Counted from the first letter of the stretch, positions 4,270 through 64,000 are shown. The stretch: DNA of 64,000 nucleotides from an uncultured delta proteobacterium (GCA_963727485.1 CAVSGM010000002.1:198854-262853), one strand, 5' to 3'. The notes: a model not told the origin generated them from the sequence alone. Made by a program: numbers and translations.

Positions 4270-7200
4270 GTGCCACGTCGCGACGATCTCAAGACCATCC
4301 TCCTCGTCGGCTCCGGCCCGATCGTCATCGGCCAGGCGTGCGAGTTCGACTACTCCGGGACCCAGGCCTGCCGGGCGCTGAAGGAGGAGGGCTACCGGGT
4401 GGTCCTCCTCAACTCCAACCCGGCGACGATCATGACCGACCCGGGGATGGCCGACGCCACCTACGTGGAGCCGATCACCCCGGAGGTGGCCGAGCGGATC
4501 ATCGCCGTCGAGCGCCCGGACGCGTTGCTGCCCACCCTGGGAGGGCAGACGGCCCTGAACCTCGCCGTGGCCCTCTCCGAGCGTGGGGTCCTCGACCGGT
4601 ACGGGGTGGCCCTCATCGGGGCCAGCCTCGAGGCCATCGAGAAGGCCGAGGACCGGGACAAGTTCAAGGAGGCCATGAACCGGATCGGCCTCGACATGGC
4701 CCGGAGCCGGTACGTGCGCTCCCCAGAGGAGGCCCGGGTCGCCGCCGACCAGCTGGGCCTGCCCCTCATCATCCGCCCGAGCTTCACCCTCGGCGGGGCC
4801 GGGGGGGGATGGTCCGGGACCGGGAGGCCCTCGACCGCAAGGTCCGCGAGGCGCTCCGGGAGAGCCCCAACCACACCATCCTCCTCGAGGAGTCCATCGC
4901 CGGGTGGAAGGAGTACGAGCTGGAGGTGATGCGGGACCGGATGGACAACGTCGTCATCATCTGCACCATCGAGAACCTCGACCCCATGGGGGTCCACACC
5001 GGCGACTCCATCACCGTGGCCCCGGCCCAGACCCTGAGCGACCGCGAGTACCAGCGGATGCGCGACGCCGGCATCCGCATCATCCGCGAGATCGGCGTGG
5101 AGACCGGCGGCTGCAACATCCAGTTCGCCGTGAACCCCGCCGACGGACGGCTGGTGGTCATCGAGATGAACCCCCGGGTGAGCCGCTCCTCGGCGCTGGC
5201 CTCCAAGGCCACCGGGTTCCCCATCGCCAAGATCGCCGCGCGGTTGGCGGTGGGCTACAGCCTCGACGAGCTGCCCAACGACATCACCGAGAAGACGCCG
5301 GCGTGCTTCGAGCCGGTGATCGACTACGTGATCACCAAGATCCCCCGCTTCGCCTTCGAGAAGTTCCCCGGCGCGGACCCGGTGCTCTCCACCCACATGA
5401 AGTCGGTGGGGGAGGTCATGGCCATCGGTCGCACCTTCAAGGAGTCGCTGGGCAAGGCGCTGCGCTCCCTGGAGAACACCTGGGCCGGGCTCACGCCGCC
5501 CAAGGGCGCCGACGCCGAGGCCGGGATTGACGCCCGGGTGGCGACCCCCAAGGCCGATCGCCTCCTCTGGGTGGCCGAGGCCTTCCGGCGGGGGCGGACC
5601 GTACCCGAGCTCCACGGCCTCTCGGGGATCGACCCCTGGTTCCTGGGGAAGATCCGGGAGGTGGTCGCCGAGGAGCAGCACGCCGCCGAGGCCGGCCCCG
5701 AGGGCCTCGACGCCGACGCCTGGCGCCGCCTCAAGGCCCAGGGCCTCTCCGACGCCCGCCTCGGGGTCCTCTGGGGCCGCGCCGAGACCGAGGTCCGGGC
5801 CTCGCGCCTCGCCGCCGGGGTCCGCCCGGTGTTCAAGCGGGTGGACACCTGCGCCGCCGAGTTCGAGGCGGTCACCCCCTACCTCTACTCGGCCTACGAG
5901 CGCGAGGACGAGGCGCCGCCCACCGATCGCCGGAAGGTGATCATCCTCGGGAGCGGTCCCAATCGCATCGGCCAGGGGATCGAGTTCGACTACTGCTGCG
6001 TCCAGGCCGCCTTCGCCCTGCGGGAGATGGGCGTCGAGGCGGTGATGGTCAACTGCAACCCCGAGACCGTGTCCACCGACTACGACACCTCCGATCGTCT
6101 CTACTTCGAGCCGCTCACCTTCGAGGACGTCCTGGAGATCGTCGAGCGCGAGCGGCGCAGCGGCGAGCTCCTCGGATGCATCGTCCAGTTCGGGGGGCAG
6201 ACGCCGCTGAAGCTCGCGGTGCCCCTGGCCCAGGCCGGGGTGCCCATCCTCGGCACCGACCCCGACGCCATCGACCGCGCCGAGGACCGGGAGCGCTTCG
6301 CCGACCTGATGCAGCGCCTCGGTCTCCGGCAGCCGGTCGGCGGCGTGGCCCGGAGCGTCGACGAGGCGGTGGCCGTCGCCGCGCGCCTCGGCTACCCGGT
6401 GATGGTCCGCCCGAGCTACGTCCTCGGGGGCCGGGCCATGGAGATCGTTCACGACGAGGAGAGCCTCCACCGGTACATGAACCAGGCGGTGGAGGTCTCG
6501 CCGTCGCACCCGGTGCTCATCGACCGCTTCCTCCGGGAGGCGGTGGAGGTGGACGTCGACGTCATCGGTGACGGGACCGACTGCCTGGTGGCCGGGGTCA
6601 TGGAGCACATCGAGGAGGCCGGGGTCCACTCCGGCGACTCGGCGTGCTCCCTGCCGCCATTCACCCTGGGGCCGGAGATGGTCCGGGAGCTGGCCCGGCA
6701 GGCGGTGGCCCTGGCCCGGGAGCTGAAGGTCGTGGGGCTGATGAACGTCCAGTTCGCCCTGGTGGGGCGGCGGATCTTCATCCTCGAGGTGAACCCCCGG
6801 GCCTCCCGGACCGTGCCCTTCGTGAGCAAGGCCACCGGCATCCCGGTGGCCCGGATCGCCACCGAGGTCATGGCCGGCAAGACCCTTGCCGAGCTCGGCT
6901 ACGGCAGCCTCCCCGACGGGATGCTCCCGGCGCCGCCCTACTTCTCGGTGAAGGAGGCGGTCTTCCCCTTCAAGAAGCTGCCGGGGACCGACGCCATCCT
7001 CGGGCCGGAGATGCGCTCCACCGGCGAGGTGATGGGCGTGGCCCCGACCTTCGCCGCCGCCTACGGCAAGGCCCAGGAGGCCGCGGGCAATCGCCTCCCC
7101 GCCGGCGGCACCGCCTTCCTCTCGGTGAAGGACGACGACAAGGACGACCTCGTCGACCTCGCCCGGCGCCTGGCCGCCTGCGGCTTCGCGCTGGTGGCCA

Positions 7201-7559
7201 CCGAGGGGACCCAGCGCTTCCTCGCCGACCACGGGCTCGCCTGCGCCCGGGTCAACAAGGTCCGCGAGGGCTCGCCCCACTGCGTCGACCTGATCCTGGA
7301 CGGCGAGGTTTCCTTGGTGGTGAACACCACCGAAGGCAAGCAGGAGATCGTCGATTCGTTCTCGATTCGGCGTGAGACCGTGATGAACGACGTGCCCTAT
7401 GTCACCACCCTCGCGGCCGCCCGGGCCGCCGTCGGGGCCCTCGAGGCCGCGGCGGTGTCCGAGGTCCGGCCGCTGCAGGCGTACCATCGCCATGCGAGGG
7501 CGGCGGCCGAGTGGGCCGCCTCGCTGGCCGCCGAAGGCCGCGGAGAGGAGACCGCATGA
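4270..7559 (+). CDS. carB: Carbamoyl-phosphate synthase large subunit, interrupted by a 1-nt frame change near 4800
   Basis: N-terminus [30 protein letters not shown]...[14 protein letters not shown] is in the frame of ORF 4216..4929; the remainder MVRDREAL...[24 protein letters not shown]... is in the frame of ORF 4200..7559. The junction sits in a poly-G run. Confidence 0.9.
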
Positions 7560-8035
7560 TCGACAGCATTCCCATGACCGCCGAGGGCCACGTACGCCTC
7601 CGGGACGAGCTCAAGCGCCTCAAGTCCGTCGACCGCCCCGAGGTCTCCAAGGAGATCGGCGTGGCCCGCGAGCACGGCGACCTCAAGGAGAACGCCGAGT
7701 ACCACGCGGCCAAGGAGAAGCAGGGGATGATCGAGGCGCGGATCGCCTACCTCGAAGATCACCTGGCCCGGGCCGAGATCATCGACGTCTCCAAGCTCTC
7801 GGGCGACCGGGTGGTCTTTGGCGCCAAGGTGGAGCTCCTCGACGTGGACAACGACACCGAGGTCACCTACCAGATCGTCGGCGAGGACGAGGCCGATCTG
7901 GACCAGGGGCGCATCTCGGTGCGCTCGCCCATCGCCCGGGCCCTCATCGGCAAGGAGGTCGGGGACACGGCGGTGATGCAGACCGGCCGGGGGCGGCGCG
8001 AGTACGAGATCCTCGAGGTCGAATTCGAGGCGTAG
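7556..8035 (+). CDS. greA: Transcription elongation factor GreA
   Basis: [23 protein letters not shown]...; start overlaps the carB stop (ATGA); ORF 7511..8035. Confidence 0.9.
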
Positions 8036-8038
8036 AGG

Positions 8039-62261: not shown

Positions 62262-62627
62262 GGACCGCCGGATAAGGCACGTCCCCGTCGGTGTCAAGCG
62301 CCGGAGCCGGGGGCCCACGGGGCGCCCGCGGCGGCCGGATCCGCGCGCGTCGGCCCGCCTTGACCGCCCTGCCTGCCCCGTATAGAGAGTGGGCCCCCGT
62401 CGTCCGGCGGAACCCCATCATGGCCCGTTACGTCCAGATCGAGCGCCCGACCGAAGCGACCCGGATCGCGTGCGCCGAGGACGGCGGCCTCGAGGTTCCC
62501 CCGGACCCTGCCCGCACCCAGGGCAGCCTCCCCTCCGACCCGGCGTCAGCCCCCACGGGGGCCAGCTCCGCGCGCTGCGCCGGGTCTGCAGAAGCGATCG
62601 TCACGCACATGGACTAGGAGGTCCGTC

Positions 62628-63566
62628 ATGGCACGCAAGAAGATCGGACTCATCGGCGCCGGGCAGATCGGTGGCAACCTCGCACTCTGGGCCGCGCGCA
62701 AGCAGCTCGGGGACGTGGTCCTCTTCGACATCAAGGACGGCGTGGCCAAGGGCAAGGCCCTCGACCTCTTCGAGGGCAGCCCCGTCGACGGCTTCGACGC
62801 CAACATCACCGGCACCGGCGACTGGAAGGACGTGGCCGGCGCCGACGTGCTGGTGGTGACCGCGGGCATCCCCCGCAAGCCCGGGATGAGCCGCGACGAC
62901 CTCCTGGATACCAACGTCAAGATCATCACCGACGTGGCGAAGAACATCCGGGAGCACTGCCCCAACGCCTTCGTCATCGTGATCTCCAACCCGCTGGACT
63001 CCATGGTCTACGCGATGAAGGAGGTCACCGGTTTCCCCAAGGAGCGCGTGGTCGGCATGGCCGGCGTCCTCGACACCGCCCGCTACCGCGCCTTCGTGGC
63101 CATGGAGCTCGGCGTCAGCGTCAAGGACGTCCACGCCATCGTCCTCGGGGGCCACGGCGACTCCATGGTGCCGCTCCGCCGCTTCTGCGCCGTCGGTGGC
63201 ATCCCCGTCCAGGAGCTCATCCCCGCCGACCGCCTCGACGCCATCGAGGCCCGGGTCCGCAAGGCCGGCGGCGAGATTGTCGGCCTCCTCGGCAACGGCT
63301 CCGCCTTCTACTCTCCGGCCGCATCCGCCATCTCCATGGCCGAGGCCTACCTCCTCGATCAGGGCCGGGTGATGCCCGCCGCCGCCATGTGCGACGGCGA
63401 GTACGGCATCGACGGCTACTACCTCGGTGTCCCCGCCAAGATCGGCGGCGGCGGGGTGGAGAAGGTGATCGAGGTCAAGCTCACCGATTCCGAGAAGGCC
63501 GAGCTCATGAAGAGCCTCGAGGCCGTCAAGTCCACCGTCGAGGAGACCAAGAAGCGTCTTGGGTGA
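62628..63566 (+). CDS. mdh: Malate dehydrogenase
   Basis: [20 protein letters not shown]...[17 protein letters not shown]...[10 protein letters not shown]... Confidence 0.9.
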
Positions 63567-63572
63567 CCCAAC

Positions 63573-64000
63573 ATGAAGATCCACGAGTACCAGGCCAAGG
63601 AGATCCTCCGGCGCTTCGGGGTTCCGACCCTCGAGGGGCAGGTGGCCGATGAACCCGCCGATGCCGAGCGCATCGCCAAGGAGCTGGGGACCCCCGTGGT
63701 GGTGGTCAAGGCCCAGATCCACGCCGGTGGTCGCGGCAAGGGTGGCGGGGTGAAGCTCGCCAGGAGCCCCGCCGAGGCCAAGGCCGCACGCCGCGGCGAT
63801 GCTGGGCAAGCCCCTGGTGACCCACCAGACCGGCCCCGAGGGCAAGGTGGTGCACCGGGTGCTGGTGGAGGCCGGGTGCGACATCGCCCGGGAGCTCTAC
63901 CTCGCCGTCACCCTCGACCGCGACCGCGCCCAGGACGCCATCATGGCCTCCAGCGAGGGCGGGGTGGAGATCGAGGAGGTGGCGACCCACCACCCGGAGA
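63573..64000 (+). CDS. sucC: Succinyl-CoA synthetase beta subunit (5' part; frame change near 63785-63795; runs off window)
   Basis: [63 protein letters not shown]...; continuation ...[43 protein letters not shown] is in an adjacent frame. Confidence 0.85.

Follow-up and report, generated by a model that had tools for sequence, protein, structure and literature searches.

Single-base frameshifts across a 64 kb deltaproteobacterial metagenome sequence are very probably consensus errors rather than gene decay

Are the many interrupted genes in a stretch of DNA from an uncultured delta proteobacterium (GCA_963727485.1, CAVSGM010000002.1:198854-262853; hereafter the window, which is the whole stretch of 64,000 nucleotides) dead or dying in the cells that carried them, or were they broken when the sequence was made? 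A preliminary description of this DNA had proposed that pervasive single-base indels between positions 4270 and 63800 split conserved, often essential genes, and had attributed them to sequence quality rather than pseudogenisation. I find 19 single-base indels that split or mis-terminate 14 genes (a density of ∼0.3 per kb, 19 in 59.5 kb), so that ∼30% of the window genes are mis-called. The evidence set out below makes it very probable that these frameshifts are consensus errors of a long-read metagenome assembly, and not gene decay.

The window has a GC content of ∼72%, and long open reading frames (ORFs) turn up in all six frames. ORF length alone is therefore uninformative, and for this reason a codon-usage model was trained on clearly coding ORFs, and used in a Viterbi segmentation of the sequence into six frames and a non-coding state. 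The genes recovered include carB, greA, recG, thrC, a class II ribonucleotide reductase (RNR), sigma-54 activators, tetratricopeptide repeat (TPR) proteins and lipoproteins. CarB is 66–70% identical to its Anaeromyxobacter homologues and 76% identical to a JGI protein, and this, together with the gene set, suggests a position near the Anaeromyxobacteraceae. Exact 60-mers looked up in the GTDB representative genomes gave no match. Within expected single genes, same-strand frame switches are abundant in the frame model, and when both frames are read at each junction, the conserved sequence runs on across it. The preliminary description had made the same observation, that conserved motifs continue in an adjacent frame, and it is confirmed here for 14 genes. 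Four flagged frame changes were discarded, as these are ordinary gene boundaries (carB/greA at 7548, lipoprotein/Hsp70-like at 37924, and those at 46985 and 52487).

A repair was accepted only if a single ORF then held the conserved peptides from both sides of the junction. Selecting the longest ORF after repair was tried and dropped in favor of this rule, as it chose spurious frames in DNA of 72% GC. The lesions, in order along the window, are as follows.

carB, 4801..4808, plus strand: 8 G in a run that should have 9, a 1-base deletion that cuts residues 1 to ∼200 off from the rest.
recG, 9476..9481, plus strand: a base missing between 9478 and 9479, reading GCGCCT^AGGGGATCC, with a GATC 6 nt downstream.
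Zinc-ribbon ORF, 10805..10809, plus strand: GATTC for GATC (extra T); the repair gives ...EGRICDRCGMQR...CPECGH...CRNCGG*.
Crotonase/enoyl-CoA hydratase, 17024..17028, plus strand: GATTC for GATC, with the extra T at 17026.
LIP-family lipase lipoprotein, 18748..18752, plus strand: a run of 5 G for 4 (extra G).
Giant TPR protein C-terminus, 22755..22759, minus strand: GATTC (plus strand) for GATC, with the extra T at 22757; the ORF reads on into the MoCF gene.
hutH, 28168, minus strand: one extra base; the window reads ...RTILGHRDA.
lysC, 30513 and 30547, plus strand: two extra C, 34 nt apart, leaving three frames across the ACT-domain region.
comEA, 31048..31050, plus strand: one extra base, CCAACGG against CCACGG.
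NlpC/P60 peptidase, 31474..31475, minus strand: one base added close to the 3' end, which gives a mistranslated C-terminus and carries the ORF on into comEA.
Lipoprotein (∼32.39–34.27 kb), 32880..33294, plus strand: five +1 shifts, with extra bases at 32880, 32990, 33085, 33185 or 33207, and 33294.
Second sigma-54 activator, 52769..52773, minus strand: GAATC (plus strand; GATTC on the gene strand) for GATC.
pyk, 59991..59995, minus strand: GAATC (plus strand) for GATC just before the stop codon, which is lost.
sucC, 63770..63790, plus strand: a +1 shift somewhere within this interval, placed to the interval and not to a single base.

At 17 of the 19 sites there is one base too many, and at the other two one base too few. 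The 19 one-base edits rejoin all 14 genes as single ORFs without internal stops. Before repair, the peptides from the two sides lay in separate ORFs for 12 of the 14, while pyk and the NlpC/P60 gene had wrong C-termini instead; in these two and in the giant TPR gene the shift lies near the 3' end, and only the C-terminus is wrong. When repaired, the proteins align without a break to curated full-length NCBIfam models, with scores above the curated cut-offs. Once the edits are made, the frame changes that remain in the frame model are gene boundaries only, except in a lipoprotein with an FGE domain that is discussed below. The claim that indels split conserved genes thus holds for 14 of the 16 genes named in the preliminary description.

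To compare the window with close relatives, two contigs from an independent ENA assembly (ERZ25039500) were used, contig_8292 (399 kb, collinear with the window) and contig_38796 (42 kb), since exact-sequence look-ups found the locus twice in that assembly. Exact-sequence look-ups also placed the window itself on a contig of 1,887,778 bp that both NCBI and ENA list. Aligned over 23.6 kb, contig_8292 and the window are 99.62% identical and differ by 56 mismatches and 33 gap bases. The resulting indel to substitution ratio, ∼0.6, far exceeds that of real bacterial divergence. At 18 of the 19 sites one or both contigs have the frame-preserving state, and the remaining site, in sucC, lies outside the comparison. 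The extra bases in hutH, lysC (both), comEA, the NlpC/P60 gene and the five lipoprotein sites are absent from the comparators, which keep GATC at the crotonase, TPR, sigma-54 activator and pyk sites and G4 in the lipase gene.

The individual genes bear this out. For carB, the long ORF of the window aligns with the E. coli protein (PDB 1bxr) from residue 179 on (179–1070), residues 1–178 being in the other frame; both ENA contigs have G9, and the repaired CarB is ∼100% identical, over its full 1113 aa, to the protein called intact on an independent ENA contig. In recG, contig_8292 reads GCGCCTGAGGGGATCC and encodes an intact RecG of 835 aa, contig_38796 has the same state as the window, and the repaired protein matches NF008168 over positions 16–794 of 795. 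The repaired zinc-ribbon protein matches Pfam DZR. The crotonase gene reads GATCTC and is intact, at 265 aa, in both ENA contigs, and the repaired crotonase matches its models over positions 5–258 of 258. The lipase gene is intact there too (468 and 467 aa), and the repaired lipase matches Pfam LIP over 18–282 of 286. The giant TPR gene reads GATCTC in contig_38796 and ends there at ∼22680; repaired, the window ORF has 1738 aa and ends in ...RQKLALTIA*. The extra base of hutH is absent from contig_38796, and repaired HutH matches TIGR01225 over 1–499 of 506. Neither extra base of lysC is found in either ENA contig, and repaired LysC matches NF005155 over 1–405 of 407. In both contigs comEA is intact at 180 aa, and the repaired window protein matches ComEA helix-hairpin-helix models; the NlpC/P60 gene has 271 and 270 aa there, and the repaired ORF has their end.

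For the 32.4–34.3 kb lipoprotein, the frame model shows five switches, and five deletions give a single ORF of 624 aa. The window is one base longer than contig_8292 at six positions in this gene, one of which is an error of contig_8292 itself. Repair of the second sigma-54 activator links NIRELENEI with ERLLVLG...HTH, giving a 521-aa protein that matches sigma-54 activator models through the C-terminal helix-turn-helix; contig_8292 has GATC at this site. The preliminary description had listed pyk as a probable case, and it proves to be one. The extra base at 59993 fuses pyk with the downstream gene for a secreted Lys/Ala-rich protein (MRTRLIAALVAAGS...) in an 851-aa ORF (59089–61644, minus strand), an artificial fusion that arises because that base removes the pyk stop codon. 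At the same place contig_8292 has GATCC, giving ...LHRIE*, and repaired Pyk matches TIGR01064 over its full length (1–476 of 476). For sucC, the protein obtained after a one-base deletion matches SucC models 1–142 to 1–142, in register.

The ENA contigs carry frameshifts of their own, at other places. They split the TonB-dependent receptor gene (540+485) and the first sigma-54 activator gene (407+117) and fragment UvrD, all intact in the window. They also split carB (573+540, at a C-run at 5633) and hutH (386+152, at 28505), in each case at another site than in the window. On contig_38796, recG is in three pieces, broken at sites besides that of the window, and the class II RNR gene, intact in the window, is shattered. 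In lysC, the N-terminal half is broken at 30254 in both ENA contigs by a common out-of-frame extra base adjoining a GATC, where the window is in frame. This base being common to both, identical errors can recur in separate contigs. That three near-clones have differing sets of frameshifts in core genes points to random consensus error, and not to inheritance. Polarising the indels by majority rule among the three sequences was rejected, as it fails at the apparently recurrent errors, recG 9478 and lysC 30254; reading frame and model match were used for this instead.

The three sequences are otherwise near-identical, and between them are blocks of 1–16% divergence, the population holding several strains. 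At 13000–16500, the class II RNR of contig_38796 differs by ∼16%, with dozens of indels, while the RNR encoded by contig_8292 is identical to that of the window. The lipoprotein region at 32000–34500 diverges by ∼8% from the ENA contig. Such blocks could stem from strain recombination, from a mixed-strain consensus or from a low-coverage consensus.

The indels are not placed at random with respect to sequence context. Of the 19, five are inside a GATC, where 0.41 would be expected, and none of 5000 permutations reached five. All five are a doubled A, which reads GAATC on one strand and GATTC on the other. Substitutions concentrate on the same motif: GATC accounts for 15 of the 56 mismatches that separate the window from contig_8292 (p = 7e-9), and its G is the base changed in 25 of 80 isolated transitions (GATC to AATC, or GATT on the other strand; strand-normalised). 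The window has 341 copies of GATC, and the erroneous AATC/GATT state occurs 6 times in it and 19 times in the other contigs, at different copies. Reads of the R10.4.1 type have been found to carry strand-specific, methylation-induced errors, with G-to-A changes and a lower accuracy at the G and C of GATC, according to the available part of the report (Liu et al. 2024, PMC11610603). The GATC-centred signatures in both indels and substitutions lead me to infer that the organism likely has Dam-like adenine methylation of GATC, as read from error patterns rather than from a methylation call. A second candidate motif, CTCGAG read as CTCAAG, was abandoned, as two isolated cases were left after filtering.

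The preliminary description had also placed several of the indels at homopolymers. This is true of a minority, and weakly: 4 of 19 sites touch a run of at least 4, against 1.6 expected (p = 0.07), and a single one of these runs is long (G8/9). Homopolymers were therefore rejected as the explanation for most sites.

The source is very probably a long-read metagenome assembly, most likely from nanopore data, with a consensus short of a finished polish, in which each extra or missing base throws out of frame a gene that is otherwise intact and under selection. Indirect hints fit such a source, namely the Mb-scale metagenomic contig and contig names in the Flye style, 'contig_NNNNN' being the default of that program. 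Three error processes are visible. The adenine of GATC is called twice (GAATC/GATTC), or the preceding G is called as A (AATC/GATT), as described for methylated motifs in nanopore data. A few G/C homopolymers are called at the wrong length (G9 as G8, G4 as G5). Finally, the dense insertions at 28.2–33.3 kb coincide with a stretch in which co-occurring strains differ, with a consensus probably drawn from mixed or thin reads. Ten of the 19 sites fall in this cluster (28.17–33.29 kb). Substitutions relative to the ENA contigs reach ∼8% there as well, and strain mixture or thin coverage probably made the consensus poor at this place. It is known that nanopore consensus indels frameshift gene calls, and polishing has been recommended for metagenome-assembled genomes (MAGs) below ∼40x (Sereika et al. 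2022, PMC9262707).

Several points weigh against consensus error. Classic nanopore consensus errors are biased to deletions in homopolymers, while 17 of the 19 lesions in the window are insertions and their association with homopolymers is not significant. The deletion at recG 9478 is common to the window and contig_38796, and this calls for a systematic error that recurs or else for a real polymorphism. The comparator contigs belong to a slightly different strain, and so, strictly speaking, establish intact genes for close relatives and not for the very cells behind the window. One site, in sucC, is without a comparator contig. Lastly, the platform and the read support at each site are inferred, as are the methylation and the cause of the cluster.

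In two further genes, the frame switches that had been claimed were not reconstructed.

37.2 kb lipoprotein N-terminus, 37221..37300, plus strand: the lipobox frame has no start codon; the ATG at 37221 is in another frame.
FGE-domain lipoprotein, 58417..58450, minus strand: coding potential changes frame; there is no demonstrable simple frameshift.

In the first of these, a G8 run (37253–37260) and a G6 run lie between the ATG at 37221 and the lipobox frame, and contig_8292 has four 1-base indels that differ from the window, with a reading that is not interpretable there either. The absence of an in-frame start and the upstream runs agree with the proposed frame switch, of which no reconstruction was obtained, and this N-terminus is a probable candidate frameshift. 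In the second (58417–58905, minus strand), the Pfam FGE-sulfatase match covers only positions 3–114 of 255 of the model, and no other frame holds a continuation of the domain beyond position 114. A split by frameshift, as described earlier, is thus not supported, and the half-domain may be genuine, truncated or fused, and not the product of an error.

The locus around the FGE gene also differs between strains. The segment 57464–59087 of the window, flanked by an aminotransferase gene and by the gene that follows pyk, carries on its minus strand a 1.6-kb lipoprotein gene, with half an FGE-sulfatase domain and a PKD-like domain; in contig_8292 the flanks are conserved, and the same place (57.5–59.1 kb) holds an unrelated 0.7-kb gene on the other strand, for a 206-aa lipoprotein with a Laminin_B match. 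This replacement is a real difference in strain gene content.

These cases bear on the best-surviving alternative, in which most of the indels are artefacts and a minority are real strain polymorphisms or truncations, the candidates being the recG deletion, the half FGE domain and the start of the 37.2 kb lipoprotein gene. It is unlikely, though it deserves more weight than the other alternatives. recG is non-essential, and the same 1-base deletion is found in the window and in contig_38796, so that the deletion at 9478 may be a real polymorphism; the FGE domain stops without continuation in a gene that is, as a whole, a strain-variable insert absent from contig_8292; and the population does hold several strains, with the divergent blocks described above. 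Against this, a GATC lies 6 nt from the recG site, and at 30254 an identical error adjoining a GATC is demonstrated to recur. For none of the three candidates is there positive evidence that it is real.

Genuine and massive recent pseudogenisation, in a decaying or hypermutator lineage where the frameshifts are present in the cells and the genes are dead, is very improbable. The indels are truly in the deposited sequence, whose gene calls hold fragments (for instance a 339-aa piece at 33250–34269), and the recG deletion is common to two assemblies. However, the lesions strike core genes (carB, lysC, pyk and sucC), and all 19 are ±1 indels; for none of the 14 broken genes is a nonsense substitution, a larger deletion or an insertion sequence (IS) needed. 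In this genome, the G+C content at third codon positions (GC3) is a sensitive sign of continued selection, and it is undiminished, at 0.97 both for the 14 repaired genes and for 11 intact ones. The lesions are not inherited, being absent from contigs 99.6% identical to the window except in recG, and with 18 of 19 sites intact in sister contigs, three co-occurring near-clones would have to decay independently. The GATC signature, moreover, governs substitutions too, and matches the basecalling artefact described in the available part of Liu et al. (PMC11610603). Both the attribution to sequence quality and the argument that damage to essential genes makes decay very unlikely, advanced in the preliminary description, are therefore supported.

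It is even less probable that some of the GATC insertions are real, and mark an insertion hot spot at Dam-type sites in an Anaeromyxobacter-related lineage, with frameshift heterogeneity among near-clones; if so, each assembly would capture a different mosaic of broken genes. Least probable of all are programmed frameshifting, transcriptional slippage or phase variation at repeat tracts, in which the shifts would be functional: the shift in carB falls in a G8/G9 tract, and phase variation is possible at G tracts, but 14 unrelated housekeeping and envelope genes are affected, they have no common slippery heptamer or stimulatory context (with 4 of 19 sites touching a run of at least 4), carB orthologues are uninterrupted in all 120 matches listed, and the shifts are not conserved even in 99.6% identical contigs, whereas programmed shifts such as those of prfB and dnaX are conserved across orthologues.

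Three other features of the window were noted. The first is a 1.4-kb stretch (43521–44938) with no coding signal in the frame model, whose ORFs gave no match in a Pfam search; within it, 43724–44477 has no alignment to contig_8292, in which the gene call is a 342-aa ORF lacking domains. The second is an unusually long stretch (∼0.8 kb, 12278–13113) that scores as non-coding upstream of the class II RNR gene; a search of it for a cobalamin riboswitch and other Rfam families gave no match, even at E<=1. The third is the sole tRNA in the window, a tRNA-Val (anticodon CAC; 39891–39965, plus strand), with the Hsp70-like operon on one side and a sigma-54 activator gene on the other.

With consensus error as the preferred explanation, the frameshifts are a matter of quality control and not of biology, and the public record needs polishing. 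The mis-calls affect pseudogene counts, completeness, metabolic reconstructions and protein databases that already hold the fragments, and the gene calls, including the artificial pyk fusion, are not to be taken at face value. Since most of the identifiable damage is at GATC and in strain-variable blocks, and not in homopolymers, a correction aimed at homopolymers alone would miss most of it. The error signature itself points to GATC adenine methylation in this lineage, which is mildly useful, though not novel.

Three known systems resemble what is seen here. Reductive decay, as in Mycobacterium leprae and host-restricted pathogens, leaves nonsense mutations, larger deletions, IS elements, eroded codon bias and lesions common to close relatives. 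The window is like such genomes in that many conserved genes are interrupted within a short stretch, and unlike them in every one of these marks, the shared recG site excepted. A second system is that of the indels of nanopore-only assemblies (the 'IDEEL' problem; Sereika et al. 2022, PMC9262707). Here too, single-base indels split intact genes, the sites differ between assemblies, ∼30% of the window genes are affected, one-base edits cure them, and the contigs are very long and metagenomic. The difference is that the classic errors are deletions in long homopolymers, whereas the window has one long run (G8/9), 17 insertions to 2 deletions, and many sites at GATC or in a strain-variable block.

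The third is that of the methylation-induced nanopore errors at bacterial motifs, as reported in the available parts of Liu et al. 2024 (PMC11610603) and of Lohde et al. 2024 (bioRxiv 10.1101/2023.09.15.556300). As in the former, the errors concentrate at GATC, with G-to-A at its G (C-to-T on the other strand), and in the present data different assemblies err at different copies of the motif. A doubled-A +1 insertion at GATC was not found described in the available parts of either paper. What the available text of PMC11610603 describes is substitutions; to these the window adds the doubled-A insertions, and it is the insertions that break genes.

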